A stretch of DNA of 64,000 nt from an uncultured Veillonellaceae bacterium (GCA_963805085.1 CAWDTA010000002.1:768001-832000), one strand, 5' to 3'. Positions 3,834 through 38,200 are shown, counted from the stretch's first letter. Notes: generated from the sequence alone by a model not told the origin. Program-made: numbers and translations.

Positions 3834-5572
3834 TAAGCTTCCTCCGCCTTTTGATTCTGTGAATAATAAATTTCTTGATATTCTAAACTATTTTTCATGA
3901 GTTCATCATGGGTTCCGCTCGCCATGATCTTACCTTCACTGAGAACCAAAATTTTATTAACATCACGAACAGAACTAATCCTTTGCGCGATGATAAAAAT
4001 TGTCGTATTATTTAACACCTCGGTTAAACCGCCACGAATCTTGCGTTCCGTTACGGTATCAACCGCACTCGTACTATCATCTAAAATTAAAACAGCTGGT
4101 TTTTTCAGGATTGCCCGCGCAATACACAGCCGTTGTTTTTGACCACCAGATAGATTCGATCCCCCTTGCTCTAGATATGTATCATAGCCCTCAGGGAAGC
4201 TTGATATGAAATCATGCGCCTGGGCAACTTTTGCTGCAGAGATAATTTCGGTTTCCGTAGCATCGGTGTACCCCCACTTTAAATTTTCACGAATGGTTCC
4301 AGAAAACAACGTGTTTTTTTGCAAGACCATCCCGATGTTTTTTCTTAAAGAGGTTAGTGTATACTTAGCAATATCCCTGCCATCTAACAATATTTTTCCC
4401 TCAGCAACATCATATAACCGAGGTAATAATTGCACCAAGGAACTCTTACCAGCTCCCGTACTGCCAATAATCGCGATGACTTCCCCTGGTTTTACAGTGA
4501 AATCAATATCCTTTAAAATATAGTCCACCGAAGAACCAGCATAACGAAAGGCAACATGCTCAAAAACTACTTCGCCATTAACAACTTCAATAGATTCTGC
4601 CCCTTGACGATCAAACAAATCAACGCGCATATCGAGTACTTCACAAATTCTTTTATAAGAAGCGCTCGATCGCGCTAACATAATAAGCATCAACGACAAC
4701 ATCATTAAAGACATCAACACAATAAAAATATAATTGATAAAAGCCGTGATCTGGGCAATATCGGTGATCCCAGTTAAGACCATGTTCCCACCAAAATAGA
4801 CCACAGCCACGATAGCCGCATTCATCATAAACATCAGCAACGGCATATTTAAAATGACGATATTCATTGCTTTGATTGACGAATCTAGTAAATGATGATT
4901 TGCTGCTTCAAACTTTTCTATTTCAAACGCTTCTCGCACAAACGACTTTACCACTCTGACGTTGGTCAAATTTTCTTGCACATTAGAATTCAACTCATCT
5001 AGATTCCGTTGCATTTGCCTAAACAAAGGAACGGCAAGATAAATAATCATCGTTAACGCAATCACTAAAACCGGCATAACCACCGCTAAAATAAGTGACA
5101 GCTCCAAGTTGATCCGAATCGCCATGATCAATGAAAAACAAAGCAAAATTGGGCCACGCACTAAAATACGCATGCCAGCCATGATGGCATTTTGCATTTG
5201 GGTAATATCGTTGGTAAGCCTTGTCGTTAGAGAACCAACAGAAAATGCATCAATATTCTCAAAGGAAAACGTCTGCACCTTATCAAATAAAACCTGCCTT
5301 AAATCCGAGGCAACCCCAACCCCCGTCCGTGCCGAATAGCGCGCATTGCCAATCCCACTAATCAAAGCCAGCATTGCTATACCAACCATCACCAGTCCGA
5401 TTTGCGAAATGTAAAAAACATCTCCCGACGCAATCCCCCATCCCACAATCTTCGCCATCAGATTTGGATAAGCCATTTCTGCTAATGATTCAAGCAATAA
5501 AAATACTAATGAAAATGCGATATCTTTTTGATACTTCTTTATATATGGATACATTCTAAACAATGAATTCAC
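3833..5572 (-). CDS. ABC exporter, TMD+NBD subunit with degenerate site (TM287-like)
   Basis: GSTGAGKS, LSGGQ, degenerate ILDDSTS and IIAQR; coupled to the partner gene at 3833. Confidence 0.92.
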   Translation of the reverse strand: MNSLFRMYPYIKKYQKDIAFSLVFLLLESLAEMAYPNLMAKIVGWGIASGDVFYISQIGLVMVGIAMLALISGIGNARYSARTGVGVASDLRQVLFDKVQTFSFENIDAFSVGSLTTRLTNDITQMQNAIMAGMRILVRGPILLCFSLIMAIRINLELSLILAVVMPVLVIALTMIIYLAVPLFRQMQRNLDELNSNVQENLTNVRVVKSFVREAFEIEKFEAANHHLLDSSIKAMNIVILNMPLLMFMMNAAIVAVVYFGGNMVLTGITDIAQITAFINYIFIVLMSLMMLSLMLIMLARSSASYKRICEVLDMRVDLFDRQGAESIEVVNGEVVFEHVAFRYAGSSVDYILKDIDFTVKPGEVIAIIGSTGAGKSSLVQLLPRLYDVAEGKILLDGRDIAKYTLTSLRKNIGMVLQKNTLFSGTIRENLKWGYTDATETEIISAAKVAQAHDFISSFPEGYDTYLEQGGSNLSGGQKQRLCIARAILKKPAVLILDDSTSAVDTVTERKIRGGLTEVLNNTTIFIIAQRISSVRDVNKILVLSEGKIMASGTHDELMKNSLEYQEIYYSQNQKAEEA

Positions 5573-5617
5573 TCCTGAAAAAACTACTTTCTCTTATTAT
5601 AAATCATTTTAACAAAA

Positions 5618-5659
5618 CAAACCCCTAGTTTACTAAATTTATTGCAAACTAGGGGTTAT
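5618..5659. terminator. Rho-independent terminator after the antiterminator gene
   Basis: aacccctagttt...aaactaggggtt inverted repeat. Confidence 0.7.
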
Positions 5660-6493
5660 TTATTTAACTATTCTTTTAATATAAATCGTTAAATAAACCA
5701 ATTCATCATCTGAAAGGTCTACTTGCATCGTTTTTTTTATATACGCTTCAATTTTCTTTGCACATTCATATTCTTTTTTATACTTGTTAATCACTTGTAA
5801 AAGTAAAAATTCTTCTTGTGATTCCATTAATTTATTTTCAATTAACCTGTGCACAAAAAATTGTAAATGAGTTATAAATCTAGTGTAATCTAATGAATTC
5901 TTATCAATTATTGTACTTGCAAATTGATATTCTACAATAGCCAAAATATCTTTTACTATTTTTACCGTTTTAATTGTTTGATTCATGTTTTGCTCATCTG
6001 ATTGTGCATTTACTAAGTGGAATGCAATATTACCAGCTTCTTCTTCTGGTAATTCAATTTGAAGCATATGATTAATATAGTCGACGGCTTCTTTGCCGAT
6101 GCAAAACTCTTTCGGATAGAATTTTTTCACTTCCCATAAAAGATGATTTTGTATCACGATATTTTCATTATATCTTTTAATAGCAAAACTAATATGGTCT
6201 ATTAAGGTAATAAATAATTGTGTATGCAATTCTACTTTCAAAACTTCATTTGCTTGTTTAATAATATAATGCGTAATATCAACATAACTTTCCGGCATAT
6301 TTTCAATTAAATTTATATATTCATTCGTAGATTTTTTATTATCTAATATATATATCTTTTCAATTTGATCTTCCGATATTATATTCCCAACTTTTCCATT
6401 ATAACCAATCGCTTTTCCACTAACAATCACTTCATTTTCTTGATCATCTTTACCTAAAATTAAATTGTTATTCAAAATTTTAATTATCTTCAT
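5660..6493 (-). CDS. licT: BglG/LicT-family transcriptional antiterminator
   Basis: N-terminal CAT domain MKIIKILNNN...VIVSGKAIGY and two PRD domains. Confidence 0.9.
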   Translation of the reverse strand: MKIIKILNNNLILGKDDQENEVIVSGKAIGYNGKVGNIISEDQIEKIYILDNKKSTNEYINLIENMPESYVDITHYIIKQANEVLKVELHTQLFITLIDHISFAIKRYNENIVIQNHLLWEVKKFYPKEFCIGKEAVDYINHMLQIELPEEEAGNIAFHLVNAQSDEQNMNQTIKTVKIVKDILAIVEYQFASTIIDKNSLDYTRFITHLQFFVHRLIENKLMESQEEFLLLQVINKYKKEYECAKKIEAYIKKTMQVDLSDDELVYLTIYIKRIVK

Positions 6494-6566
6494 TGAATAA
6501 AAATAACCTCCTACAAAATATATTATTGTTAGTATCTAGGAATGGCTTAAGAAAAAATTTTAACAA

Positions 6567-8048
<1,482 letters not shown>

Positions 8049-8113
8049 TTACCTTATAAAATTCATTTACTATGCTCATAATTTATAATTTTCATCTATA
8101 TAATAATTTATCT

Positions 8114-9997
8114 TTATTTTATTACTGTAAACAAAATATCCTCTTTTGATACGGCTGTATTCTCCGTTCCTAATACGTCCAAGTACTTTTCCGTATTCGT
8201 TGCAACTACCATGGTTGTTATTTCATAACCCGATTTTTTAATATTATCTTTGTCAAATTGAATCAATAGCTGACCTTTTTTTATATTTTCTCCATTTTTG
8301 ACTTTTGCTGCAAAATATTTTCCTTCTAGTTGTACCGTATCAATACCGATATGAATCATAATTTCCAATCCATTATCGGCAGTTATGCCAAGCGCATGTC
8401 CAGTTGGAAATACTGCTGTCACTACCCCATCGACTGGCGCATAAACATTACCGTCAGCAGGTTCAATTGCCATTCCCTTGCCTACTGATTCTGTTGAAAA
8501 AACAGAATCATTTACTTTCGCTAATGGAATTGCATTCCCTTTTACAGGTGCTAGTACTTCATATATTTTAATACCTTCACAAAAATCAGTTTTCTTTTTT
8601 TCCTTCACAAATTCCTTTTTAGTTTCTTCTTTTTCTGTTGGTACATCATCTTCTTCAATACCTAAGAAGTACGTAATACCTGTTGTTAAGAAAAATGCCG
8701 CTGAAATCCCAATAATATAAAATAAAAATGTATCAGTCATAAATGCTGGTAACGTTGTTAATGCTGGGAACACATACACCATAACCGTTGTTTTCATACT
8801 GCCAACAAAACCACCTGCGATTGCGCCACTAATAACGGCGGCATACATTGGTGTTTTATATTTCACCGAAATACCATATACAATCGGCTCTGTAATTCCG
8901 CCTAAAAGTGCTGGTAACATTGCTGAAAAAGCAAAAGTTTTATTCTTTTTTTGCTTTGCCTTTAAAAATACCCCAAATGCTGCACCAGCTTGTGCAAATG
9001 TCGCTGTCGCAACAGCTGGACGAATCGTATCAAAACCATAAAGCGCTATATTGTTAATCATGATTGGTACAACGCCCCAATGAATCCCAAACATAACAAG
9101 AAAAGTCCAACCTGCGCCAATGATAGCACCAGTTAATACTCCACTTTTTGCACTTAAGAATCCAATTGCCGCACCAAGACTATTCCCTAAAGTTACACCA
9201 ACTGGTCCAATCACCATCATAGTAAGTGGAACCATAATTAAAAGTGCTAAAAAAGAAATCATAAATATTTCGATGTTCTTCGGAATAATTTTCTTTAACA
9301 ATCTTTCTACATAAGAATATACCCATACAGATAAAATTGCTGGAAAAATGGTAGAAGTATAAGACATTAATACAACGGGAATTCCAGCAAAACTTGTAAT
9401 ATCACCGACTTTTTTCATTAGTGAAGTAAAGTTCGGTTCAATCAACGCCCCCATGATACCTGCTGCAATATAAATATTTACCCCAAATGTTTTTGCTGCT
9501 GAAAACGCAATCATTATCGGGAATAAATAAAATACGCTATTGCCAGCTGCCGCTAAAATTTTATAGGTACTGCTTGAATTTTCCATGCCGCAATAAGTCG
9601 TGAAGATGACAAGCAATGCCTTAATCATCCCAGAACCTGCTAGTAATGGAACGATTGGGGCTAAAATAGAAGACATCATATTGAATAATTTTACAATAGG
9701 ATTACTTGTACTTATTTTTGTTTCTTCTTGTTTTTCTATTGAATTTTCTTTTATTGAATATAAAGATAAAATGGTATCACATACTTCTTCGACGTGATTA
9801 CCAATAACTACTTGATATTGTCCATTACTAATAATTAAACTAATAACCCCTTCGATTACTTCTACTTCTTTTTTATTAACGAGACTTTCATCTTTTACTT
9901 TAAATCTTAGTCTTGTCATACAATGATACAGATTTAATACGTTTTTTTCTCCACCAACAGCATTGATAATGTTTTCTGCTAAACTTTCATATTTCAT
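8114..9997 (-). CDS. PTS beta-glucoside transporter EIIBCA
   Basis: HCMTRLRF (EIIB Cys), GITEP (EIIC), IHIGIDTV (EIIA His). Confidence 0.93.
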   Translation of the reverse strand: MKYESLAENIINAVGGEKNVLNLYHCMTRLRFKVKDESLVNKKEVEVIEGVISLIISNGQYQVVIGNHVEEVCDTILSLYSIKENSIEKQEETKISTSNPIVKLFNMMSSILAPIVPLLAGSGMIKALLVIFTTYCGMENSSSTYKILAAAGNSVFYLFPIMIAFSAAKTFGVNIYIAAGIMGALIEPNFTSLMKKVGDITSFAGIPVVLMSYTSTIFPAILSVWVYSYVERLLKKIIPKNIEIFMISFLALLIMVPLTMMVIGPVGVTLGNSLGAAIGFLSAKSGVLTGAIIGAGWTFLVMFGIHWGVVPIMINNIALYGFDTIRPAVATATFAQAGAAFGVFLKAKQKKNKTFAFSAMLPALLGGITEPIVYGISVKYKTPMYAAVISGAIAGGFVGSMKTTVMVYVFPALTTLPAFMTDTFLFYIIGISAAFFLTTGITYFLGIEEDDVPTEKEETKKEFVKEKKKTDFCEGIKIYEVLAPVKGNAIPLAKVNDSVFSTESVGKGMAIEPADGNVYAPVDGVVTAVFPTGHALGITADNGLEIMIHIGIDTVQLEGKYFAAKVKNGENIKKGQLLIQFDKDNIKKSGYEITTMVVATNTEKYLDVLGTENTAVSKEDILFTVIK

Positions 9998-10051: not shown

Positions 10052-10807
10052 AATCAAAACCACCCGTCCAACGGGTGGTTTGAACTGAGGCTGTAAGCCT
10101 CTATTACTAGCCAGCGTCTAAAGGCGCTGGCTTTCACTTTGTTCAAGCCACTGTGGTTTTGTCATTTTTACTATCCCTCAAGGGATATTTGTACTATTTT
10201 ACTTTTTACCCTTAAAAGGGTCTTCATATTCTCTAACACTTAATTTATCTAGTGCCTGATCATGTTTTTCTTGCTCTTGTATATATTTTTTTATAGTGGC
10301 TTCATTCAATCCTACTGTACTTACATAATATCCTTCTGCCCAAAAATGTCTGTTCCCATATTTATACTTTAGGTTACTATGCTTTTCGAATATCATCAGT
10401 GCACTTTTTCCTTTTAAGTATCCCATAAATGCAGATACACTAATTTTCGGTGGTATTGACACTAACATATGCACATGGTCTACCATCAAATGCCCCTCTA
10501 ATATTTCTACCCCCTTGTAACTACATAATCTCCTTAATATTTCCCCTATACTTTCTCTGTATTGCCCATATATTATTTTTCTTCTATACTTCGGCGTAAA
10601 TACTATATGATACTTGCACATCCATTTGGTATGTGCTAAACTTTGAGCCATAAACTCACCGATCCTTTCTTGTAATAGTGGCCTGAACACCCTCTATTAT
10701 AAGAATCCGGTGAGTTTTTGTATAACTTCTGTCGCGCACCTGCATAGCAGGTGGTTTTTTGTTTCGTTCGCTTCGCTACCTCAACAGACTAAAGTCTAAA
10801 ATAAAAA
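10052..10807 (-). mobile_element. IS200/IS605-family element (tnpA only), copy 1
   Basis: Matches 47598-48353 at constant offset; subterminal hairpins aaaccacccgt/acgggtggttt and cacctgc/gcaggtg; exact ends uncertain by a few bases. Confidence 0.92.
10199..10651 (-). CDS. tnpA: IS200 Y1 (HUH) transposase
   Basis: YHIVFTPKYR, DHVHML (HUH), KKYIQEQ catalytic Tyr. Confidence 0.95.
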   Translation of the reverse strand: MAQSLAHTKWMCKYHIVFTPKYRRKIIYGQYRESIGEILRRLCSYKGVEILEGHLMVDHVHMLVSIPPKISVSAFMGYLKGKSALMIFEKHSNLKYKYGNRHFWAEGYYVSTVGLNEATIKKYIQEQEKHDQALDKLSVREYEDPFKGKK

Positions 10808-10874
10808 AGGCCTTTCCCAAGACGTATAAAATACATCTTAGAAAAGGCCTTGCCTGCATTACCAGTAACACACC
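10802..10874 (-). promoter_or_regulatory. RAT (ribonucleic antiterminator) overlapping the bgl leader terminator
   Basis: Minus strand GGTGTGTTACTGGTAATGCAGGCAAGGCC matches the BglG/LicT RAT; terminator stem 10808-10827/10831-10850 then a U-tract. Confidence 0.88.
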
Positions 10875-10974: not shown

Positions 10975-11073
10975 TATTCCCTAATTCAACACCTGTGGAC
11001 TAGTTGCTGTTTGGTTTATTTCCCGTTGCTTTGCAGTTCTCTACCCTTTTGATTATCCGCTAACATGATTTTT
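10975..11073 (-). pseudogene. Remnant of a ppk 3' end, internally deleted
   Basis: 10981-11013 matches 20422-20454 and 11013-11073 matches 20558-20617. Confidence 0.85.
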
Positions 11074-11133
11074 GAGTAATTAAATGTTAAAATGTTTTTA
11101 CGACAGTTGGCAGCAAGGACTTCCCCACATTTC

Positions 11134-11396
11134 AGCCACCTCGTCAAAGCCCCCACAGAAAATGCATCAATATTCTCAAAGGAAAAGGTCTGTACCTTAT
11201 CAAATAAAACCTGCCTTAAATCCTAGCCATCAAATTATGATAAGCCATTTCTGTTAACGATTCAAACAGTAAAAATAATGATGAAAATACGATATCTTTT
11301 TGATACTTCTTTATATACAGATACGTTCTTAACAATAAATTCACTCCTGAAAAACTACTTTTCCTTATTATAAATCATTTTGACAAAACAAAACCC
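11134..11396 (-). pseudogene. Remnant of the ABC exporter 5' end and upstream region, internally deleted
   Basis: 11134-11223 matches 5217-5306 and 11226-11396 matches 5454-5624. Confidence 0.9.
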
Positions 11397-11472
11397 GTTT
11401 TCGTGAAATTATGATGTTAAATATCGCTTTTAAACAATAAAACATTAAGAGGAACCATCCTTAAACTCCTAT

Positions 11473-12348
11473 TTACTCTATACACTGTAGCAATAAACGA
11501 TCAAGTTTATTTTGTAAGTTCTCAGAAATATGCATTAATGGTAGTCTTGTTTCGGCGGAATGAATAAGCCCTAATTTCTCTAAACAATACTTTATCGGCG
11601 ACGGATTCGGTTCTTCAAATAACAAAGGAATGATCGGTGCTATTTTTGCCCATATTGCTAGTGCCGCCTGATGATCATTTTTTTTGACTTTGTCATAGAT
11701 GCTAATAAATTTTCTGGTGTTCAAATGGGCAGATGCCAATATTCCTCCTTGCCCGCCCAGTACAAGGGTCAAATAGAAAAATATATCTTCACCCGTTAGA
11801 ATGGAAAAGTTAGCAGGGGGCTGACGTAGTAGTTCCATTGTCTGTTTGATATCTCCACTGGCGTCTTTCAAACCAACAATGTTTTTTAACCCCGCCAGGC
11901 GATAAAGAGTTTCATTTTCTACATTCCGGCCTGTACGATAGGGAATATTATAAAGAATGATATCCAGATCTGTAGCTTCAGAAATCCTTAGAAAATGCTC
12001 GTAAATTCCCCTCTGATCTGGCCTATTATAGTAAGGAGAGACAGAAAGAATTCCAGCAACCTGATACTGCTCTACAATTTTCAGTTTTTTCATGACTTTT
12101 TTAGTATCATTCCCACCAAGGCCAATAAAGACAGGCACACGATTATCCGCATACTCCATCGTCTTGGCAATAAGTTGTTCAAACTCCTCATCCGTAACAG
12201 TAGGACTTTCCCCAGTCGTTCCTAGTGGCATAAGACCACTAATGCCTTCTTCAATATAATGATTAATCATTTGTTGATATGATACCAAGTCAATTTTATC
12301 ATCTAAAAAAGGGGTAATAATGGGTAACCAAACTCCATCAATTTTCAT
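11473..12348 (-). CDS. dapA: 4-hydroxy-tetrahydrodipicolinate synthase
   Basis: GTTGES, SPYYNRP, LYNIPYRTG, GLKDASG, EPNPSPIK. Confidence 0.88.
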   Translation of the reverse strand: MKIDGVWLPIITPFLDDKIDLVSYQQMINHYIEEGISGLMPLGTTGESPTVTDEEFEQLIAKTMEYADNRVPVFIGLGGNDTKKVMKKLKIVEQYQVAGILSVSPYYNRPDQRGIYEHFLRISEATDLDIILYNIPYRTGRNVENETLYRLAGLKNIVGLKDASGDIKQTMELLRQPPANFSILTGEDIFFYLTLVLGGQGGILASAHLNTRKFISIYDKVKKNDHQAALAIWAKIAPIIPLLFEEPNPSPIKYCLEKLGLIHSAETRLPLMHISENLQNKLDRLLLQCIE

Positions 12349-12366
12349 ATCAATTCTCCTCTTTTA

Positions 12367-12468
12367 TTAGTAGTGACCCTTTATTCCTTCATCTCTTTTA
12401 AATCGATCTTGCGCCAACTGGATTAATCGATCAATTAGCTTGGAATAGAGAATCCCACTTGTTTCCTA
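12367..12468 (-). pseudogene. 3' remnant of a D-Ala-D-Ala ligase gene
   Basis: Hand translation *ETSGILYSKLIDRLIQLAQDRFKRDEGIKGHY* resembles the Ddl C-terminus W-x-x-SG-x-x-Y-x-x-LI-x-RLI-x-LA-x-x-R; the Trp codon reads TAG. Confidence 0.6.
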
Positions 12469-12592
12469 TTACATCCTATGTACTTATTATATTCATATTT
12501 TTCACTATTTTTGCTGTTTTAAATGCTTATTTTATTGCAAAAGTTGTTGTATAATCAAAAGATATAAAGATCAATGAAGAGAGGATACTCCT

Positions 12593-13501
12593 ATGGAAAT
12601 AGAAAATAAAACGATTTACTACAAAAGCGGCTACTTACTGAAAAACTTTGAACTTTTTCACTTAAGAGATAAAAAAAATATGCAATTCGAATTTCACTAC
12701 CATGATTTCAACAAGATTATCATTTTCATCTCTGGCAAGGTAACTTACTTAATTGAAGGAAAAGCATATCAATTAAAACCATGGGATATCCTCCTCGTAA
12801 ACAGTAACGAAATTCATAAACCCTTAATTGACGCTGGAGAAACCTATGAACGTATGGTAATTTGGGTCAACTCCTTTTTTTTAATGAAACAAGATAATGG
12901 AGAAAACACGTTATTGACTTGCTTTGCACTCGCGACCCAGCGGAAAATGAATTTGCTACGCTTAACCCCTGAACTACTTCCTATAATTAAGAATATCCTT
13001 TTTGAGCTAGAAGATACAGATATAAACCAAGAATTTGGTAGTACAATTCTTAAAAACTCTTTATTTTTACAATTAATTGTATACCTTAATCGCATCTCCT
13101 TGGGTATTGAAAACGACAAAGAACAACCTGATATTCAATATGATAAAACCATCGCACGGATATTGCATTATGTGAATGAAAATCTAAGTGAGGATCTATC
13201 TATGGATAAATTGTCCAGCGTATTTTTTCTGAGTAAATATTACCTGATGCATAAATTCAAACAGCATACAGGATATACTCTTCATAATTACATATTGCAA
13301 AAACGATTGATTGCTGCTAGCGCTCTGATTAAGGAAGGAAAATCAATCACCACCGCCTGCACTGAATCAGGGTTTAGTGATTATTCAAATTTTCTTAGAG
13401 CCTTTAAAAAAATGTTTGGTCTCCCACCCAAAAAGCATGTCCAACTACTACATGAACAAGAAAAAATAAGTGGTCACAATGGCCGCAATTTAGTTTTGTA
13501 G
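12593..13501 (+). CDS. AraC-family transcriptional regulator
   Basis: Cupin N-terminus (FHYHDF) and C-terminal HTH ESGFSDYSNFLRAFKKMFG. Confidence 0.92.
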   Translation: MEIENKTIYYKSGYLLKNFELFHLRDKKNMQFEFHYHDFNKIIIFISGKVTYLIEGKAYQLKPWDILLVNSNEIHKPLIDAGETYERMVIWVNSFFLMKQDNGENTLLTCFALATQRKMNLLRLTPELLPIIKNILFELEDTDINQEFGSTILKNSLFLQLIVYLNRISLGIENDKEQPDIQYDKTIARILHYVNENLSEDLSMDKLSSVFFLSKYYLMHKFKQHTGYTLHNYILQKRLIAASALIKEGKSITTACTESGFSDYSNFLRAFKKMFGLPPKKHVQLLHEQEKISGHNGRNLVL

Positions 13502-13553
13502 TTCTCTGCCTATTTACTTAGATTCACTACTTTTGAACCGCTGGAACAAAAAA

Positions 13554-13707
13554 AAATAAAGAAATCAGCAATGAAGCTAATTTCTTTATTTTAATAGTTA
13601 TCATGTATATGAAATTGTGCAGTAACTGCGATTCATCAGAATCCAACTTTTTTTCTACCGAAGCGAGCGAAGTAATTTTGTCATTTTAACTGTTTTCTGT
13701 AACACCT
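13554..13707 (-). pseudogene. Remnant of a gyrA 3' end plus its terminator
   Basis: Matches 23901-24060, including aaataaagaaatcagcaatgaagctaatttctttattt. Confidence 0.9.
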
Positions 13708-13785
13708 CTATATCTTTTCTCTAAAGATATATGATCCCATAGTCATTTCTTATCACAGCACTAAAAAGAGAGCTTTCTTTAGCCT

Positions 13786-14865
13786 TTAATATTCATTAAA
13801 CATACGCTGAATTTCTTTTGGGTCATTTGTTTTTGTCAGTGCCAGTTGCAATAATACTCTTGCTTTCTGCGGATTCAGAGTATCTCCATCTAAAAAACCT
13901 TCTGCAGTCCATTGCTCAGAGGAAGGCAGTACCAGACCATTGCCGGTACGAGAGCTGCGTACAACGACAATACCTTTCTTCTGCGCTTCAACCAAAGCAG
14001 GTTCTGCATTTTTATGAATGCTTCCCATCCCGCTGCCAGCATATACAATTCCCTTTGCTCCTTCTGCAATAACTGCATCTACCAACGCTCTACCTTCGTT
14101 TACATGTGTATAAATTATTTCTACATTCGGCAAATCCGTCAATCCAGATACATCAAATTCCGTTTGTCTTGTGTGCTTCCTTGTAGATTCTTTATAAAAA
14201 TATGGTCTTTCAGCACCAATATAGCCTAGGCAGCCTAGTTCCGGTGCTTTAAATGTACTTACTGTTGATGTGTTCGTCTTTGTAACATCGCGTGCGCCAT
14301 TAATCTCATCATTCATCACAACCAGTACACCTCTTCCCTTCGAAGATTTATCACCAGCTACTCTGACCGCATTCAACAGATTGATTGGCCCGTCCGCACT
14401 GATTGCTGTTGCCGGACGCATTGCACCGACAATAACAACAGGCTTATCACTTTTTACAACAAGATTCAGAAAATACGCCGTTTCCTCCAATGTGTCTGTA
14501 CCATGGGTAATTACAATACCATCAACATCATTGCTCGCAAGTAGTTCATTACACCTCGTCGCCAATTTCAGCCAAACATCATTTGTCATATCATTGCTAC
14601 CAATACTTGCAACCTGCTCACCGCTGACATTAGCATATTTTTTCATCTCTGGTACAGCATTTATCAAAGTTTCAATACCGATAGCGCCGGCTTTATACCC
14701 TGTTACTTTAGTGTTTGAATCCGCACTGCCGGCGATTGTTCCACCAGTTGCCAAAATTTTAATATTTGGCAACTCATTTTTCTCATTTGCGAAACCGATT
14801 GAACTCACCCCTAGAAAAAAAACACACAACAATACCGAAACAAGAATTCCTGCTTTCTTTTTCAT
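13786..14865 (-). CDS. Exported type II asparaginase, FraE-like
   Basis: Signal peptide from MKKKAG; ATGGTIAG and THGTDTLEET motifs; fra context. Confidence 0.88.
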   Translation of the reverse strand: MKKKAGILVSVLLCVFFLGVSSIGFANEKNELPNIKILATGGTIAGSADSNTKVTGYKAGAIGIETLINAVPEMKKYANVSGEQVASIGSNDMTNDVWLKLATRCNELLASNDVDGIVITHGTDTLEETAYFLNLVVKSDKPVVIVGAMRPATAISADGPINLLNAVRVAGDKSSKGRGVLVVMNDEINGARDVTKTNTSTVSTFKAPELGCLGYIGAERPYFYKESTRKHTRQTEFDVSGLTDLPNVEIIYTHVNEGRALVDAVIAEGAKGIVYAGSGMGSIHKNAEPALVEAQKKGIVVVRSSRTGNGLVLPSSEQWTAEGFLDGDTLNPQKARVLLQLALTKTNDPKEIQRMFNEY

Positions 14866-14923
14866 ATTTATTTCTCTCCCCTCTATATTTTCCTTGTATT
14901 TTTCAACCATATGGGTACTTCCA

Positions 14924-15340
14924 TTATTCCAAAAGTTCTGCCGCTTTTTTTCTGACCATAACAAGCTCATCCTCTGTCATATCAATGTATTTACTATTCT
15001 CAGCTGTAGTATCTGCAGCTTGAATATACATCATTTTGGTATCCGATTGAGTAATCGTATTAAACCAAGTATTTTTAGGGATATGATATATTTTATTTGG
15101 CTCCATCTTAATTAAATCAATATCAAAACCATTTTTATTTCTAGATGCCGAAAGCAACACTGCCCGTCCCTGCATCAAAACAAATTCCTCATCAGATTCG
15201 TAGTGTGTTTCCAGTGCTTTTATATATCTGATATCGTTATTCGGCTTCCAATTCTTTATACATAAAAGCCAGCCTTCATTTTTAAAAACACATTCTATTC
15301 CTTCATCATCATATTCAAATATCTTTGCAATTTTCGGCAT
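14924..15340 (-). CDS. Hypothetical protein, probable cupin-like beta-barrel
   Basis: LETHYESDEEFVL...YHIPKNTWFNTI pattern; good RBS; inside the fra operon. Confidence 0.65.
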   Translation of the reverse strand: MPKIAKIFEYDDEGIECVFKNEGWLLCIKNWKPNNDIRYIKALETHYESDEEFVLMQGRAVLLSASRNKNGFDIDLIKMEPNKIYHIPKNTWFNTITQSDTKMMYIQAADTTAENSKYIDMTEDELVMVRKKAAELLE

Positions 15341-15368
15341 ATTCGATTTCTCCTTTATTTTTGCTTAA

Positions 15369-16238
15369 TTAATCACTAAATTTTTTACCATAACCAAAGC
15401 CACCGTGAAGCATTACTGTTCTAGCTGCAGATTCACTGCCCTTTTTCATAGCTGCAAGAACAGCATCGTATTTTTTAACAGCAGCAGATTCTCCATTGAC
15501 ACAGTTCTTTTGCCACTGGACAATACAGAGCAGAAACCCTGTCAAAAAGGAATCTCCTGCTCCCATGGTATCAAGTGCATCAATATATGGTGGTTTATAC
15601 GCAATTTTCTCTTTATCATCATAATAAAAAGCTCCTTCAGAACCGCGTGTTGTGATAACAATATTGCAGTCCATGCCCAACAATTTTTTTGCTTTTTCAT
15701 CCATTTCAGCTACCGTGATATCTCCGCAGGAAACAAAACCGTAATCCACGTACGGACATACCTGCTGAAAATATCCATCTGTTCCTCTTACAGAAAAATC
15801 AAAAGATAACGTTACCCCTGTACTCTTTATCTTTTCCAGTTCCGGTTCCAAGTAGCTATTCAAACTGGTATGAACTAAATCGAAGCCCCCGATATATTCC
15901 AAATCTTCTCCGCTCAGCTTCATTGGATTTTCGCGCAAAATGCCACCTTTATTACTGCCCAGAAATATACGATCGCCATTTTCTAGTTTCACTCTGGCAG
16001 CGCCGTTTTCACCAGAAGCAACTTTACAATGGCTCATTTCTATGTTTAATTTTTTAATGGTATTCTGTACATGATTCGCCGCTTCATCTGTGCCAAAAAA
16101 ACCCATATATGATGCAGCAACACCTAAAATTTTTGCATTTGCTGCAAAATTCAATGCATTACCACCAGGATACATAATTTTACTGTGCATATATTTATCG
16201 ACAACGTTATCACCTAGGCCAAGCACTTTTAAGGACAT
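15369..16238 (-). CDS. PfkB-family fructosamine kinase (FrlD/FraD-like)
   Basis: LGDNVVDKY, YPGGNALN, DTMGAGDSF. Confidence 0.88.
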   Translation of the reverse strand: MSLKVLGLGDNVVDKYMHSKIMYPGGNALNFAANAKILGVAASYMGFFGTDEAANHVQNTIKKLNIEMSHCKVASGENGAARVKLENGDRIFLGSNKGGILRENPMKLSGEDLEYIGGFDLVHTSLNSYLEPELEKIKSTGVTLSFDFSVRGTDGYFQQVCPYVDYGFVSCGDITVAEMDEKAKKLLGMDCNIVITTRGSEGAFYYDDKEKIAYKPPYIDALDTMGAGDSFLTGFLLCIVQWQKNCVNGESAAVKKYDAVLAAMKKGSESAARTVMLHGGFGYGKKFSD

Positions 16239-16308
16239 TTCTAACACCTCTTATAAAGAATCACATTTTTTATATTGACAATATTTATAATATTCAGATA
16301 ATTATAAT

Positions 16309-16369
16309 ATGAATGACCTAGTATTAATTTCGTCATTCTGTCCAACGAAATCAATACTAGGTTCATCAT
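16309..16369. repeat. Long imperfect inverted repeat between deglycase and kinase genes
   Basis: acctagtattaatttcgt...acgaaatcaatactaggt. Confidence 0.65.
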
Positions 16370-16406
16370 TGAATCCTTAATCCCAACATAAATTTGCTAA
16401 AATAAA

Positions 16407-17381: not shown

Positions 17382-17407
17382 GAAAATTCCTCCTTAAAAA
17401 TTAAATA

Positions 17408-18754: not shown

Positions 18755-18897
18755 ATTTACTATTCAAAACAAGAAACCAATCAGATGCACTTCTCCAACA
18801 ACTGCTTATTTGAGCTATCTAGAATTCAAATTCACTTCTACTAAAATCCTTTCAGTTAAATAAATCTCTTTCAAAAAGCTACTATTTTTGCGTGCAT

Positions 18898-18935
18898 ATA
18901 GATTACAATATATTTGTAATCTATTGTTATGATAA
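18898..18935. promoter_or_regulatory. Palindromic operator candidates upstream of the fra operon
   Basis: atagattacaa-tatat-ttgtaatctat and tgttat-g-ataaca; probable GntR sites (inference). Confidence 0.45.
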
Positions 18936-19019
18936 CATTATAGTACAAATATAACAATAGAATTTTACAAAAAAAATTTGCGGCAGAAGAAGATCTTCTA
19001 CCGCAACATCATTGTCGCT

Positions 19020-20388: not shown

Positions 20389-20421
20389 ATTAAAGCCTTC
20401 TCTTTTTTCAACTATATTCTC

Positions 20422-23866: not shown

Positions 23867-23900
23867 TTTTACAAATTTCTTTAATAAAAAACAAAAATAA

Positions 23901-23939
23901 AAATAAAGAAATCAGCAATGAAGCTAATTTCTTTATTTT
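23901..23939 (-). terminator. gyrA terminator
   Basis: aaataaagaaatcagc...gctaatttctttattt. Confidence 0.75.
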
Positions 23940-23978
23940 AATAGTCATTTTGTATCTGAAATTGTGCAGTAACTGTGA

Positions 23979-34138: not shown

Positions 34139-34177
34139 AGTATCACCTCAATATTAGTATAACATCTTTTTATTAGT

Positions 34178-34204: not shown

Positions 34205-34338
34205 TCTGGTCAAACATTTTAAATATTTGGAAGGATTTTGATATTCATTAGCGAAACTCTCTAATACGAATAGAAACAATTAACATTATTGGATTTTTAT
34301 GTCGTTAATTGTCAAATGATAGACAAAGAGGTGTTGTC

Positions 34339-35358
34339 GTGCGAAAAAAATTTTTAATATTGTTAACAGTATGTTTATTACTTATTTCAATTACAATGGG
34401 AGGCTGCAGCGATATGCAAAGCAAAACAATAACTGCCACAAAAAGTTACCCCAATAGACCTATTACTGTCATTGTACCTTTTAGTGCGGGAGGTGGCTTG
34501 GATCTTCTAGCCCGGTCATGGGAAAAAATGACACCTAAATATCTAGGACAACCTTTAGTTGTTGTCAACAAACCAGGCGGAGGTGGCACCATCGGTTGGA
34601 ACGAACTAGTGAACGCTAGTCCAGATGGTTATACGCTTGGTATTAGTACCGTTGACGTACTTATCCAACCCTTATATGGAACAACGAAATATCACTACCC
34701 CACTGCCTTAGAGCCTATTGCTCAAGCTACAACTTCATCATTTATAATGGTAGTCCCAGCCGAACAGCCTTGGCAAGACCTTGATGCTCTAATTAGATAT
34801 GCCAAGCAGCATCCAGGACAATTGAAATGCGGTCATGCAGGAATAGGCGGAACAGTACATATTATTGGCGAAACATTCGCCAAAATTAATGACATTACTC
34901 TTGAGCAAGTTCCCTTTCATGGCGCTAATGACGCAATGATTGCTTTGTTAGGTAACCATATTCAAATTGCTTTTGTTAATTCATCAACAGCCAAAGAACA
35001 AATAAAAAATGGTACCCTAAGAGCACTAGCAACGACAGGCGAACAGCGACTTACTGACCCAGACTTAGCACAGATACCAACATTTAAGGAGCAGGGACTT
35101 GATATTGTATTAAACAATTGGTATGGAGTAGTAGCGCCTAAAGAGCTATCGCCTGAAATCAAAACTAAGCTAGAGGAAGGATTCAAAGCAATCATTGCCG
35201 ACCCAGAATTCAAAGCTAATATGGAAAATTTAGGATTGCAAGTTGAATATTTAAGTTCCGATGACTCCAAAGAAAAATGGATCTCCGATGGTGATGAATT
35301 GGCTAAGACCATACAAGAAACTGGAATCTTAGAGCAAATCAAAGCTCAAAAAAATTAA
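34339..35358 (+). CDS. Tripartite tricarboxylate transporter substrate-binding protein (TctC/Bug), lipoprotein
   Basis: YPNRPITVIVPFSAGGGLD, VVNKPGGGG, PDGYTL, IPTFKEQG; lipobox-like GGC. Confidence 0.92.
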   Translation: MRKKFLILLTVCLLLISITMGGCSDMQSKTITATKSYPNRPITVIVPFSAGGGLDLLARSWEKMTPKYLGQPLVVVNKPGGGGTIGWNELVNASPDGYTLGISTVDVLIQPLYGTTKYHYPTALEPIAQATTSSFIMVVPAEQPWQDLDALIRYAKQHPGQLKCGHAGIGGTVHIIGETFAKINDITLEQVPFHGANDAMIALLGNHIQIAFVNSSTAKEQIKNGTLRALATTGEQRLTDPDLAQIPTFKEQGLDIVLNNWYGVVAPKELSPEIKTKLEEGFKAIIADPEFKANMENLGLQVEYLSSDDSKEKWISDGDELAKTIQETGILEQIKAQKN

Positions 35359-35484
35359 TACTGCTATGTCCAAGGGACGGGGTTGTTGACAAGAGATAAG
35401 GTGGCGCGTACTTTTATCTCAACTAAATTGTATTTAAAAACTAAAACGGGGCTGTTGCACTAAGAAATTAGTATAGCAGCCCCT

Positions 35485-35670
35485 TAGAATGTAGACCTAT
35501 ACAGATAGTTGACATAAGAAAATCGTTGAATCAAAGCAACCCAGGCGAATCTTACTACCACTTAGCTTTGAAGACTTTTTGTCTGACCGCAGGGAGGTTG
35601 AAAGATTCGTCTTTTGCCGACTTGTTATTTTTGTTGTAAGTCATTTGTTTTTCTACTTTACTATAGAATC
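35485..35670. repeat. Degenerate MITE-like intergenic repeat
   Basis: Starts TAGAATGTAGAC, contains tgtctgaccgcagg; longer copy at 37939-38163. Confidence 0.5.
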
Positions 35671-35706
35671 TTAGAAATGCGCCCCACCGCCACTAGAAGA
35701 CAATTT
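35671..35706 (-). pseudogene. Remnant of a bioA 3' end
   Basis: Translates ...SSSGGGAHF* versus intact BioA ...AANGGGAHF*. Confidence 0.75.
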
Positions 35707-35755: not shown

Positions 35756-36385
35756 TTAGGCATTATTTAAAGGAAATGTCTGCGATTGAAATGCCAAAAA
35801 TATAGCGATCCATTGATCTTTTGCAGGAAAGTGAATGAAAAGTGCGCCGTCTTGATAAGGACCATTGTCTTTTTCAAATTCCCCTGTATTTCCCTGATTC
35901 ATATGAATATCGTGTATACCATTTCCGGGTTTGAAGCCGAAATATTGATCGCGAAGTTTTTCCTCTGTATCCCATCTTTGACCGAAGGCGTATACTGTTG
36001 CATCACTTGTCCGAATTGCTAAATCGATGTATTTTTCAATCAGTTCGGCCAATTCATTGTCCTCCCCTGTAATGTGGTGGGCAGTTTTCATTTTGTGGTA
36101 ATCAAAAAGATCCTTCTTGATATAGTCTAAAGCGATACTGCTTGCCTTACTTTGTAGTGCTGTAAACCCCAAAGCAAGGTCTTTAAAGTTTGCTAAAATA
36201 TCATGGCTGTAATTTTCATCAATATAGTAGAGCAACTCTGGTGGAGATTTTACTGATTTAACATTGATTGCAAGTCGATAGTCGAATTCACTATCTACAA
36301 CATGAACCTCATAGTGGGATGAATCAGCGGCATGCATTCCTTGAATAGGTTGACATTTTAACACTCCATACGATGCTATTGGCAC
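35756..36385 (-). CDS. YukJ/DUF2278-family protein
   Basis: YGVLK, YRLAINVKS, GIHDIHMNQGN, YQDGAL, AIFLAFQSQ. Confidence 0.85.
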   Translation of the reverse strand: MPIASYGVLKCQPIQGMHAADSSHYEVHVVDSEFDYRLAINVKSVKSPPELLYYIDENYSHDILANFKDLALGFTALQSKASSIALDYIKKDLFDYHKMKTAHHITGEDNELAELIEKYIDLAIRTSDATVYAFGQRWDTEEKLRDQYFGFKPGNGIHDIHMNQGNTGEFEKDNGPYQDGALFIHFPAKDQWIAIFLAFQSQTFPLNNA

Positions 36386-36720
36386 AGTAATCCCTCTCCT
36401 TTATATCATATTATAATATTAAAGATTTATAACTGCTTACAATAAAATAATTACTTATATTTCCATTTTATTAGAAAACCGAAAAACAGTCAACGTAAAT
36501 AATATATAAATTATGGTATGTATTAATAAAGAGTGAATTACTCTGGGTTGTTATAGCAATTCGTCTATTTCTATACCTTATTAATTTCCTTTCGGGAAGA
36601 AGATTGGGACGTTATTGTGTCCTCCCCAAATTGCTCTATGATGATAGAACATATGTACAAATGTTGCTTTGATGCATATGTTCATAAAAATACAATCTTG
36701 AACAAGTGTGAAAATAATCG

Positions 36721-38200
36721 AATATTTGGAAGGATTTTGATATTTATTGGCGAAGTTAGATATATAAATAGGAACAATTAACATTATTGGATTATTGTGT
36801 GGTTAATTGTCAAATAGTAGACAATGAGGTGTTGTCGTGCAAAAAAAATTTTTAGTGTTGTTAACAGTATGTCTATTACTTATTTCACTTATAATTGGTG
36901 GCTGCAACGATATGCAAAGCAAAACAATAACTGCCACAAAAAATTACCCCAATAAACCTATTACTGTCATTGTACCTTCTAGTGCGGGAGGTGGCTTAGA
37001 TCTTCTCGCGCGGTCATTGGAAGAAATGGCACCTAAATATCTAGGACAACCATTAGTTGTTGTCAATAAACCAGGCGGAGGTGGCACCAACGGTTGGAAT
37101 GAATTGGTTAGCGCAGATCCAGATGGTTATACGCTTGGTATTAGTACCGGTGACGTACTCATCCAAACCTTATATGGAACAGCGAAATATCACTACCCCA
37201 CTGCCTTAGAGCCTATTGCTCAAGCTACAACTTCATCATTTATAATGGTAGTCCCAGCCGAACAGCCTTGGCAAGACCTTGATGCTCTAATTAAATATGC
37301 CAAGCAGCATCCAGGACAATTGAAATGCGGTCATGCAGGAATAGGCGGACCAGCACATATTATTGGCACAACATTCGCCAAAATTAATAATATTACTCTT
37401 GAACAAATTCCTTTTCATGGTGCTAATGACGCGAAGGTTGCCTTGTTAAGTAACCATATTCAAATTGCTTTTATTAATTCATCAACAGCCAAAGAACAAA
37501 TTCAAAATGGTACCCTAAGAGCGCTAGCAACGACAGGCGAACAGCGACTTAATGACCCAGACTTAGCGCAGATACCAACTTTTAAAGAACTAGGCTTTGA
37601 TATTGTATTAGCTAATTGGTATGGAGTTGTAGCGCCCAAAGAACTACCGCCAGAGATCAAAACTAAGCTAGAAGAAGGGTTTAAAGCAATGATTGCCGAT
37701 CCTAAATTCAAAGTTAATATTGAAAATTTAGGCTTGCAAGTTGAATATTTAAATTCCGATGATTCCAAAGAAAAATGGATCTCCGATGGTAATAATTTGG
37801 CTAAAACAATGCAAGAAACTGGAATCTTAGAACAAATCAAAGCTCGAAAAAATTAATACTGCTATGTTAAAGGTATTAAATTGTAATTAAAGAATAAAAC
37901 TGGGGCTGTTGCACTAAGAAATTAGTGTAGCAGCCCCTTAGAATGTAGACCTATAAGAGATAAGTTGACATAAGAAAATCGTTCAATTAAGGCAACACAG
38001 ATGAATCTTACTACCACGTAGCTTTGAAAGCTTTTTGTCTGACCGCAGGAATTTTAGCCTTCATTGCGATTTTCAAATCACCACTACCTTGAGATTCGTC
38101 TCTTGCCGACTTGCTGATTTTCGTTGTCAATTTATCTGTTTTTCTACTATATACTATAGAATCTTAGAAATGCGCGCCCCCACCATTAGCAGCAGTTTGC
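36721..38200 (+). repeat. Diverged ~1.5 kb direct repeat, copy B
   Basis: Colinear with 34222-35706 and runs into the intact bioA 3' end. Confidence 0.9.
36837..37856 (+). CDS. TctC/Bug substrate-binding lipoprotein, paralogue 2
   Basis: Same length (339 aa) and motifs as 34339-35358. Confidence 0.92.
   Translation: MQKKFLVLLTVCLLLISLIIGGCNDMQSKTITATKNYPNKPITVIVPSSAGGGLDLLARSLEEMAPKYLGQPLVVVNKPGGGGTNGWNELVSADPDGYTLGISTGDVLIQTLYGTAKYHYPTALEPIAQATTSSFIMVVPAEQPWQDLDALIKYAKQHPGQLKCGHAGIGGPAHIIGTTFAKINNITLEQIPFHGANDAKVALLSNHIQIAFINSSTAKEQIQNGTLRALATTGEQRLNDPDLAQIPTFKELGFDIVLANWYGVVAPKELPPEIKTKLEEGFKAMIADPKFKVNIENLGLQVEYLNSDDSKEKWISDGNNLAKTMQETGILEQIKARKN

Follow-up and report, generated by a model that had tools for sequence, protein, structure and literature searches.

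How does a bacterial chromosome come to carry, close to an intact gene, a second and decaying copy of that gene's own end? The question is raised by a 64,000-nt stretch of DNA from an uncultured Veillonellaceae bacterium (genome G000; the whole stretch is referred to as the window), in which intact gyrA, ppk, bioA, mntR and ABC exporter genes are each followed by a fragment of their own end in direct orientation. Self-BLAST combined with a repeat search of the window confirmed the four gene-end scars listed in an earlier note on this DNA (E = 1e-9 to 1e-58). The minus-strand gene order given there was correct and the quoted codon changes were present, among them those in the bioA tip, where each of the three Gly codons differs. 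The 3' end of mntR and its copy add a fifth such pair (Table 1).

Table 1. Anchor genes, scars (marked by a prime) and cassettes, with positions counted from the first letter of the window.
Feature	Coordinates	Strand	Description
mntR 3' end	1386..1452	-	67-nt copy, 95.5% identical, 3.6 kb downstream at G000:C2:765742-765808, just beyond the window
ABC exporter gene A, intact, anchor gene	3833..5572	-	5217-5625 (5' end + promoter) is the parent of the ABC' scar
bgl cassette	5660..9997	-	licT antiterminator, 6-phospho-beta-glucosidase, beta-glucoside PTS IIABC
IS200/IS605-family element	10052..10814	-	99.7% identical to copy at 47598-48359
ppk' scar	10975..11073	-	last ~200 nt of ppk, 84-nt out-of-frame deletion, TAT>TAA stop
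Filler between ABC' and ppk' scars	11074..11133	.	60 nt, unique in genome
ABC' scar	11134..11423	-	promoter + first ~400 nt of ABC gene, 145-nt deletion, TCG>TAG stop
dapA-like (-) + araC (+) cassette	11473..13501	.	also in G001
gyrA' scar	13545..13720	-	~last 20 codons of gyrA (TAA>GAA, small indels) + gyrA terminator
fra/ansB cassette	13786..20271	.	asparaginase II, 137-aa ORF, frlD-like kinase, frlB-like deglycase, Dcu transporter, truncated MFS gene (19060-19368), gntR (+)
ppk, intact, anchor gene	20415..22551	-	20415-20617 is the parent of ppk'
gyrA, intact, anchor gene	23890..26414	-	23890-24060 is the parent of gyrA'
Repeat copy A	34222..35706	+	tctC-A (34309-35358), hairpin, ~185-nt dispersed element, bioA' scar at end (35655-35706, minus-strand reading)
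DUF2278 (yukJ-like) cassette	35756..36385	-	
Repeat copy B	36721..38198	+	tctC-B (36837-37856), hairpin, dispersed element, runs into true bioA 3' end
bioA, intact, anchor gene	38164..39636	-	

In the window self-BLAST, the ABC 5' end matched in a longer part (5447-5625 with 11219-11396; 87.7% over 179 nt, E 1e-53) and a shorter one (5235-5306 with 11152-11223; 95.8% over 72 nt), and alignment with the intact gene showed that the scar lacks the ~145 nt between them. The ppk 3' end likewise matched in two parts (10998-11073 with 20543-20617, 88.2% over 76 nt; 10975-11017 with 20415-20459, 91.1% over 45 nt), with ~84 nt missing from the scar. For gyrA, the match (13545-13707 with 23890-24060; 86.6% over 171 nt, E 6e-46) contains only ~60-80 nt of coding sequence; the remainder is the gyrA terminator region, within which a 45-nt stretch is identical in both copies. 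The bioA scar (35603-35706 with 38092-38198; 84.3% over 108 nt) exists as described earlier, but not as a lone fragment: it is the terminal part of a repeat of 1.5 kb (34222-35706 with 36721-38198) that includes the whole tctC gene, a hairpin and a dispersed element present in at least 20 copies in the genome, with identities of 90.7% over 1150 nt, 90.2% over 173 nt and 84.3% over 108 nt along its length. Overall, the scar/gene repeats are 60-400 nt long and 5-18% diverged, and the scars carry stops, frameshifts or indels and larger deletions of their own.

To place the locus in context, we compared it with four related gyrA-ABC loci and one related bioA locus. The gyrA-ABC loci came from G001, the sole same-genus genome in the reference set and a fragmented assembly, and from the metagenome contigs L013, L014 and L015. 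The anchor genes are conserved in these relatives, and the contents between them differ in G001, L013/L014 and L015, in agreement with the earlier view of a locus with alternative contents. The order in G001 is gyrA-ppx-ppk-esterase-araC-ddl-dapA-ABC, with ddl, absent from G000, between dapA and araC; the ABC' scar stands in the same dapA-ABC context. In L013 and L014 the ppk-ABC interval is empty (ppk-0.5/0.7 kb-ABC), and in L015 the fra/ansB cassette sits directly upstream of ABC (gntR-MFS-dcu-frl-ansB-0.3 kb-ABC). This cassette is 91% identical between L015 and the window, while the adjacent ABC gene reaches only 80%, a difference that we count in support of a probable exchange of cassettes between lineages. 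Homology to the window stops at 20346-20350 on the ppk side (G001, L013, L014) and at 5625-5642 on the ABC side of the related loci; judged by these alignments, the ppk-ABC interval is a sharply bordered, variable hotspot.

The bgl cassette was found in none of the four related gyrA-ABC loci. Internal scars were likewise absent from all four, and among the compared gyrA-ABC loci only G000 has stacked contents with scars between them. In G001, the DUF2278 cassette has bioA tips on both flanks, the second of them 82% identical with frame and stop intact, and the segment corresponding to 36520-37876 of the window is absent. The simple layouts predicted in the earlier note (gyrA-araC/dapA-ABC, ppk-bgl-ABC and bioA-tctC) did not appear: 0/3 occurred in the four gyrA-ABC loci and the one bioA locus, which showed other layouts instead.

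Codon differences between scars and genes bear on where the second copies came from. Pooled over 16 scars, we counted 97 synonymous and 85 non-synonymous differences (pN/pS 0.22). The resulting synonymous share of 53% compares with a random expectation of 20% and with at most 33% for an in-situ duplication in which one copy is neutral (p = 2e-8). By this measure, purifying selection was still acting on both copies when most of the scar/gene divergence arose. Informative sites per individual scar are few (5-17). Of the eight real differences between ppk' and the resident ppk, five show the G001 allele in the scar. In bioA the intact G000 tip is the odd one at 38179, 38182 and 38190, where the bioA of G001 agrees with the G000 scar; in the last ~30 nt, three of four informative sites of the intact gene are unlike both. 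For ppk and bioA, the imported copy looks to be the intact end. At polarised sites of ABC', differences off the scar branch comprise 8 synonymous and 2 non-synonymous changes, and the scar branch itself has 12 non-synonymous and 5 synonymous changes in addition to stops and frame-breaking deletions. The divergence of ABC' and gyrA' is mostly decay, or else would reflect a distant allele. The proposal that the scars are once-functional alleles and not simple decayed duplicates thus holds for the pooled codons and the polarised sites, but it underplayed plain decay, as the ABC' branch illustrates.

Self-BLAST of the whole genome turned up many more gene-end scars. The census covers one genome, with crude ORF calls (longest ORFs of at least 120 aa) and BLAST with 16-nt words. 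All 31 local genic-intergenic low-copy repeat pairs were direct and 0 were inverted; 23 of the 31 lay at an ORF end, and 20 of 27 end pairs were on the side expected for the order gene-insert-scar. Further anchors in the genome include argH, tex and rlmH. Two stacked tips were seen at bioA in G001 and at argH in G000, and a further full gene-insert-scar structure lies at another locus within a single G001 contig (98% identity). The scar-bounded cargo consists of metabolic and transport operons of 1-25 kb. From sequence comparison, these data suggest that short decayed ends of housekeeping genes mark additions of operon-sized cassettes from diverged relatives, made without an integrase at many sites of the genome.

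We found no tyrosine or serine recombinase in the window, as had been noted before; the three tyrosine- and two serine-recombinase matches of a six-frame search of the genome all lie far from scar loci. In 11 other scar-bounded inserts, none of the 89 ORFs matched integrase, recombinase or transposase families at E ≤ 1e-8, and neither the window cassettes nor these inserts contained toxin or immunity families. The speculative link to RAYT or IS200 enzymes found no support: only 3 of the 19 scars have a repeat of at least five copies within 300 nt, compared with 9.9% of random windows, and the IS200/IS605 copy beside ppk' is far younger than the scars, given its near-identity to the second copy. 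At the ansB|gyrA' joint, microhomology amounts to at most 1-2 nt. The 60-nt filler at 11074-11133 has no other copy in the genome and would be the illegitimate joint of ABC'|ppk'; both joints look illegitimate. ComEC is present, with one full-length match above the cut-off, and Ku was not found in this genome, which scored 83% complete.

Our preferred explanation of the locus, held with moderate confidence, is sequential end displacement through recombination that is anchored in a conserved gene at its flank. DNA from a diverged relative would undergo one homologous crossover inside the conserved anchor gene (in the 3' end of gyrA, ppk or bioA, or in the 5' end of the ABC gene), and an illegitimate joint, placed within the recipient's own version of that gene end, would close the other side. 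A working gene end and a new cassette would thereby arrive together, while the old end would be pushed outward and decay as a scar, with the older cassettes behind it retained. Repetition would build up stacked cassettes in which the oldest scar lies furthest from the gene. The direction of events is ambiguous, as an ABC anchor with ppk' as hitch-hiker and a ppk anchor with ABC' as hitch-hiker both fit.

As the recombination route we infer, and lean towards, homology-facilitated illegitimate recombination (HFIR) of linear DNA via transformation, in which DNA enters as linear single strands. HFIR in transformable bacteria is the subject of work by de Vries and Wackernagel in 2002, Prudhomme et al. 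in 2002 and Meier and Wackernagel in 2003. Its reported hallmarks are one homologous anchor and an illegitimate joint with little or no microhomology, by which foreign DNA is trapped beside a conserved gene; here, too, a conserved anchor is found on one side, and the other joint has at most 1-2 nt of microhomology (ansB|gyrA') or the 60-nt filler (ABC'|ppk'). Laboratory HFIR reportedly gives mostly insertion with deletion of recipient DNA, and an additive outcome with a retained gene end is said not to be typical. The events in those papers are reportedly laboratory ones, without retained duplicated gene ends or repeated stacking in natural genomes.

Cassette turnover between fixed genes has several precedents. 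In Neisseria, minimal mobile elements (MMEs) lie between conserved flanking genes. Integrase-free hotspots between conserved flanking genes were described by Oliveira et al. (2017, Nat Commun 8:841), and the term minimal mobile element is used in PMC3787668. Such loci share with ours alternative cassettes between the same two core genes across strains and the lack of mobility genes; there, cassettes are exchanged by homologous recombination in the flanks, and double crossovers replace content and leave no scar, whereas here new content joins the old and every event is marked by a gene-end scar. For T6SS effector-immunity arrays, Kirchberger et al. (2017, Sci Rep 7:45133) proposed HFIR and drew an analogy to integrons without an integrase. 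In these arrays, similarly, successive insertions beside a conserved anchor move the older modules, and the 3' ends of effector genes, further downstream; those arrays are polymorphic Vibrio toxin loci with retained immunity genes, not housekeeping anchors and not a genome-wide pattern. As in integron cassette arrays, new cassettes would enter beside a fixed point and push older ones outward, but IntI and attC sites are lacking here and what repeats is an end of the adjacent gene.

The earlier note had instead invoked circles, a possible but rather doubtful alternative to end displacement from linear DNA. A chromosomal fragment with a gene-end piece and a cassette would circularise, through an illegitimate joint or when a gene recombines with a scar that it already has, pass to a relative and integrate by a single RecA crossover of the Campbell type in the shared gene end, which leaves that end duplicated on both sides of the cassette. 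This predicts exactly the observed product, with direct repeats only (31/31), the expected side (20/27), diverged alleles and no integrase. Moreover, the ABC'|ppk' joint with its filler resembles the closure point of a ppk'-bgl-ABC' circle, and excision as a circle would be a natural step for a repeat-flanked cassette. However, being short and diverged, the repeats are poor RecA substrates now, and the compared loci showed neither a circle junction nor a cassette with an identical scar boundary in an unrelated host. The first circle would still require an illegitimate joint, and a homologous crossover of linear DNA combined with an illegitimate joint upstream of the gene's stop yields, with no circle involved, the same end product as single-crossover integration of a circle.

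To account for C-terminal displacement in rhs genes, Jackson et al. (2009, BMC Genomics 10:584) proposed a circular intermediate that integrates through one homologous crossover, exactly as in the circle model above, and argued that only a circle explains shunting without deletion. Both systems show an intact gene followed by tandem displaced 3' fragments that include a conserved gene part, with new ends from other lineages and no integrase. In rhs, non-homologous toxin tips are displaced along with their immunity genes, under selection for toxin diversity, whereas the ends here are homologous (82-96%) and functionally the same. Furthermore, the cargo here consists of separate metabolic and transport operons (bgl, fra/ansB, araC-dapA, tctC, DUF2278), the anchors are the housekeeping genes gyrA, ppk, bioA, argH, tex and rlmH, and a 5' end can be displaced as well. 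It is conceivable, though unlikely, that gene ends act as portable RecA-dependent attachment sites, with scar-flanked cassettes looping out as circles and re-inserting behind the same housekeeping gene in relatives. If so, integron-like exchange without an integrase would operate genome-wide at ~15 or more housekeeping genes, and each stack would record the order of acquisition.

We consider it very improbable that the cassettes are remnants of site-specific integrative elements that insert at the 3' ends of genes and supply a replacement for the end, so that the repeats would represent attL and attR and integrase-less cassettes would have been mobilised in trans (CIME-like tandem accretion). 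Elements integrating in the 3' ends of protein genes do leave a displaced, diverged end with mostly silent differences and do stack in tandem, and rlmH, found here among the other anchors, is where SCCmec integrates in staphylococci. The absence of a recombinase from the window cassettes and the 89 insert ORFs, the remote position of the five genomic matches and the cargo of ordinary metabolic and transport operons nevertheless speak against such elements. In addition, no att recombination joins a 5'-end scar to the 3' end of another gene via filler, and ppx-ppk, which such an element would have carried to gyrA, also comes after gyrA in G001 and L013, the two related loci that extend this far.

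An old tandem duplication in situ, spanning the interval from gene end to gene end, after which one end decayed and the two units lost or gained content differently, is rejected by the synonymous share of the pooled codons and is extremely unlikely overall. The scars do show decay, the ABC 5'/ppk 3' join is the classic join point of a duplicated ppk-ABC interval, and the empty ppk-ABC layout exists, but ppk' and bioA' are closer to another lineage's functional allele than to the resident gene, no content except the tctC repeat is common to two units, and 4/4 related loci lack the duplication. Least credible is an assembly artefact that joined strain haplotypes in series: although a mixed-strain, metagenome-type assembly could place flank alleles with silent differences in tandem and the genome scored 6% contaminated, the copies are 5-16% diverged, and a co-occurring strain with intact alleles would not show the stops, frameshifts and 84-/145-nt deletions of the scars. 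Record 3 of run X1, an independent metagenome contig, extends from 13566 in gyrA' across the ansB junction as far as ppk. G001, an independent genome, shares the bioA' junction and has the single-contig structure at another locus; the repeats are real. The scar region lies 16-49 kb from the origin (GC-skew switch at ~53-54 kb; dnaA at 54362-55768), consistent with the placement near oriC proposed before.

Self-BLAST and a repeat search of the window bore out the four displaced gene ends (scars, primed below) that the earlier note had described, each a copy of the end of an intact gene, its anchor. By pairwise alignment, the ABC transporter scar (ABC') lacks ~145 nt of its parent and ppk' lacks ~84 nt, and gyrA' consists of ~20 codons plus the gyrA terminator, the terminator being the larger share. 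According to NCBIfam and Pfam, the minus-strand order from gyrA is gyrA-ppx-ppk-[gntR(+), MFS fragment, dcu, frlB-like, frlD-like, ORF, asparaginase II]-gyrA'-[araC(+), dapA-like]-ABC'/ppk'-IS200-[bgl PTS, bglA, licT]-ABC-ABC-mntR; further right it is bioW-F-D-A-[tctC-B(+)]-[DUF2278]-bioA'-[tctC-A(+)]-RAYT-like ORF/group II intron. The region does lie near the origin, 16-49 kb away as judged from dnaA and the GC skew, which changes sign at ~53-54 kb, with dnaA at the switch.

Coordinates of scars, repeats and neighboring features (window positions unless a contig is given; window, G000:C2:768001-832000; G000, genome under study; L012, contig of the same-genus genome G001)
Feature	Copy 1 or position	Copy 2	Identity	Method
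ABC 5' end	5447-5625	11219-11396	87.7%	self-BLAST, repeat search
ABC 5' end, second block	5235-5306	11152-11223	95.8%	self-BLAST, repeat search
ppk 3' end	10998-11073	20543-20617	88.2%	self-BLAST, repeat search
ppk 3' end, second block	10975-11017	20415-20459	91.1%	self-BLAST, repeat search
gyrA 3' end	13545-13707	23890-24060	86.6%	self-BLAST, repeat search
bioA 3' end	35603-35706	38092-38198	84.3%	self-BLAST, repeat search
1.5 kb repeat	34222-35706	36721-38198	about 90%	
Dispersed element (~185 nt)	35500-35690	37958-38143		
Group II intron	30850-34207			
Intron D1-D4 match (minus strand)	33050-33192			Rfam
RT/maturase ORF	31781-32695			
251-aa ORF	33380-34138			
dnaA (minus strand)	54362-55768			
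Second IS200 copy, near origin	47598-48359			
Truncated MFS gene	19060-19368			
ppx downstream of gyrA; second exopolyphosphatase gene upstream of gyrA	22529-23740	27365-28297	74% (DNA, over 228 nt)	
mntR 3' end (67 nt)	1386-1452	G000:C2:765742-765808	95.5%	
tex locus	G000:C2:27287-55191		91%	
rlmH locus	G000:C2:15364-21995		83%	
argH locus	G000:C4:27152-36232			
G001 D-Ala-D-Ala ligase gene	L012:8228-9322			

Further gene-end scars, which the same note suggested looking for, emerged from a self-BLAST of the 4.2 Mb genome. With crude ORF calls in this one genome, we obtained 31 local low-copy pairs in which a genic copy has an intergenic partner less than 60 kb away; every one of the 31 is a direct repeat. 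Local pairs fell mostly at ORF ends (23, with 7 internal and 1 covering a whole ORF), compared with 11 at ends and 13 internal among distant pairs. The scar lay on the side expected for a gene-insert-scar order in 20 of 27 end-pair rows (binomial p = 0.02). Anchors include tex, rlmH, argH, an ABC permease (with a mannose PTS operon as its insert), galM, and mntR.

At tex, a 25 kb polysaccharide/capsule locus is followed by a 209-nt copy of the tex 3' end (91% identity), and at rlmH a MarR-HlyD-MFS efflux cassette is followed by a 138-nt copy of the rlmH 3' end (83% identity). The latter is where SCCmec inserts in staphylococci; the G000 rlmH locus has no ccr-like recombinase. The 3' end of argH (argininosuccinate lyase) recurs twice in a stack downstream of the gene, at 1.7 kb (92.8%, 291 nt) and 7.6 kb (90.4%, 178 nt), with NUDIX, ThrE, and ion-channel genes in between.

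The scars had been regarded as once-functional alleles rather than simple decayed duplicates. We polarized each difference with G001, the one genome of the genus that the reference set contains, and the related loci on metagenome contigs L013, L014, and L015, with few informative sites per scar; this upheld the allelic differences and revealed plain decay alongside them. Decay is seen as TCG>TAG and a 145-nt deletion in ABC', TAT>TAA and an out-of-frame deletion in ppk', and loss of the stop in gyrA'. Of the changes on the ABC' branch, 5 are synonymous and 12 non-synonymous, close to what random change would give. Outside that branch ABC' shows 8 synonymous and 2 non-synonymous differences, 7 of which fall at sites where the relatives' alleles have mixed states; in 6 of these the scar state recurs. 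ppk' has the G001 state at the 5 positions where the resident ppk stands apart; it has 3 changes of its own, and the deletion joint adds 2 more. The functional bioA of G001 matches the G000 scar at 3/4 informative coding sites. The outlier is gyrA', with 12/16 differences on its own branch.

Judged from sequence, the most likely route is import by one crossover and an illegitimate joint. DNA of a diverged relative would recombine by one crossover inside a conserved gene, and the other side would be closed illegitimately inside the recipient's copy of the same gene end. The import would thereby bring a working gene end and a cassette, the resident end would turn into the scar, and older content would be retained. 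Microhomology of at most 1-2 nt at the ansB/gyrA' joint and a 60-nt unique filler at the ABC'/ppk' joint fit illegitimate closure. ComEC is present in the genome; Ku was not found in a genome search. The circle proposed earlier, inserted by a single crossover at the shared anchor gene, would give the same product as linear homology-facilitated illegitimate recombination (HFIR). For ppk and ABC, either a ppk'-bgl-ABC fragment would have been anchored in ABC, or the block from 20617 to 11134, anchored in ppk, would have entered a ppk-bgl-ABC already in place; the latter is mildly favored by the resemblance of ppk' to the G001 allele.

In-situ duplication is contradicted by the codon changes. We pooled 16 of the 27 end-pair rows, leaving out 7 opposite-side rows, ABC (analyzed separately), and the short or tandem-type rows C2:419795, C3:291250, and C5:319142. 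Between scar and gene, 97 of the pooled differences are synonymous and 85 non-synonymous (pN/pS 0.22). Random change predicts a synonymous share of 20%, and duplication with the extra copy neutral from the start at most 33%; the observed 53% (p = 2e-8) indicates that most divergence arose while both copies worked, i.e., in different lineages.

An origin from decayed site-specific elements is likewise contradicted, as none of 89 ORFs in 11 scar-bounded inserts matched an integrase, recombinase, or transposase (Pfam, E <= 1e-8; one of the 90 ORFs, crossing a sequence border, was left out). A six-frame search of the genome gave 3 tyrosine- and 2 serine-recombinase matches, none near scar loci. 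The suggested RAYT/IS200 link gained no support, with 3/19 scars lying within 300 nt of a repeat of at least 5 copies versus 9.9% of random windows. The IS200 copy adjoining ppk' is recent, sharing 99.7% identity with a second copy. Misassembly is also contradicted, since the scars carry stops and deletions of their own and a contig from an independent run spans the ansB/gyrA' joint.

At bioA, the scar proved to be no separate fragment: it forms the end of a 1.5 kb repeat in which a complete tctC gene, a hairpin, and a dispersed element of ~185 nt also lie. Both tctC-A and tctC-B are intact and have diverged under constraint (dS 0.22, dN/dS 0.29). The dispersed element has at least 20 copies in G000 at 78-87% identity and ~20 in G001; one copy lies within ~20 nt of the bioA stop codon. 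In G001 the locus reads bioA-element/hairpin-bioA''-DUF2278-bioA', without tctC-B. The second tip, bioA'', is 82% identical and keeps frame and stop, with mostly silent or conservative differences; a sensitive search of G000 upstream of its DUF2278 gene found no such tip. The tips may form a series in which bioA', adjoining tctC-A, came first, bioA'' arrived with the DUF2278 cassette, and the present tip arrived with the element/tctC-B unit, tctC-B later being lost from G001 and bioA'' from G000. The neighboring group II intron, the only Rfam match in window 1-42000, has 16-19 copies genome-wide; the abutting 251-aa ORF carries a Y1 transposase (IS200/RAYT-like) domain and is repeated together with it.

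Layouts in relatives were compared in fragmented G001 and the three metagenome contigs. G001 reads gyrA-ppx-ppk-esterase-like ORF-araC-ddl-dapA-ABC-ABC-mntR at 93-97% identity to the window. Its D-Ala-D-Ala ligase gene, between dapA and araC, is missing from G000, and its esterase ORF, between araC and ppk, is PAF-acetylhydrolase/PETase-like. In L013 and L014, ABC follows ppk after 0.5-0.7 kb. L015 has gntR-MFS(intact)-dcu-frl-ansB, then ABC after 0.3 kb; it has a terminator of its own and lacks a gyrA scar. Identity to the window is 91% for the L015 cassette and only 80% for its ABC, indicating that the cassette moved between lineages. In all related layouts, homology ends at 20346-20350 behind ppk and at 5625-5642 before ABC, and none of the four loci holds an internal scar. 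None of the three simple layouts predicted earlier (gyrA-araC/dapA-ABC, ppk-bgl-ABC, and bioA-tctC) was seen in the related loci. G001 shows the gene-insert-scar structure at one other scar locus; three further searches were uninformative because it is fragmented. A scan of genome contigs with AraC gave no near relative besides G001, the next-best matches being 59-68% identical, in Clostridium and others. Sliding identity between G000 and G001 across mntR-ABC, tried as a pointer to an imported part of ABC, swings from 85% to 99% with no single breakpoint.

The 8 public runs listed all contained only 5-8% of words, and four were mapped on the window. Record 3 of run X1 (9873 nt) joins the gyrA scar (from 13566) to ansB and on to ppk at ~95% identity. 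X8 contigs cover gyrA, araC, and dapA with ppk/ppx uncovered, and X1 contigs have almost no cover on araC/dapA; these gaps were set aside as layouts since missing contig cover is not evidence, and X8 at most hints at a gyrA-araC layout. The X2 joints 13588>23937 and 23867>13548 were rejected as a gyrA-araC junction, as a 41-nt patch flips between repeat copies, and the X1 joint 13557>10003 (depth 2.9) was set aside because it runs into the multi-copy IS200 region.

Most horizontally acquired genes lie in hotspots between core genes, many without mobility genes, and how such DNA is added, not swapped, is mostly inferred. Addition events here left readable footprints, one displaced, once-functional gene end per event, with about twenty such ends in one genome, all direct. 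With such scars, integrase-free acquisitions can be counted, put in order, and dated using only the sequence, and the scar alleles offer a route to partner lineages. The closest described system is C-terminal displacement in rhs genes, for which the mechanism of the earlier note was proposed (Jackson et al. 2009, BMC Genomics 10:584), followed by Vibrio T6SS arrays, with sequential displacement and HFIR proposed (Kirchberger et al. 2017, Sci Rep 7:45133). G000 differs in that its anchors are housekeeping genes with homologous ends, its cargo consists of metabolic and transport operons, a 5' end is displaced as well, and the scars are spread genome-wide. A narrow literature search found no published description of this housekeeping-gene version, whose novelty is provisional. 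The displacement model, until now confined to the polymorphic toxin loci rhs, CDI, and T6SS, would extend to ordinary housekeeping genes of a Negativicute and to metabolic operons as cargo.

Adjoining these loci, the mntR pair is a fifth scar pair, its copy lying 3.6 kb downstream and 2.2 kb left of the window, with two amino-acid permease ORFs (225 and 420 aa) and one 131-aa ORF in between. At position 19148, within the truncated MFS gene, L015 and the X1 contig are ~835 nt longer, so G000 carries a deletion inside a cassette gene.
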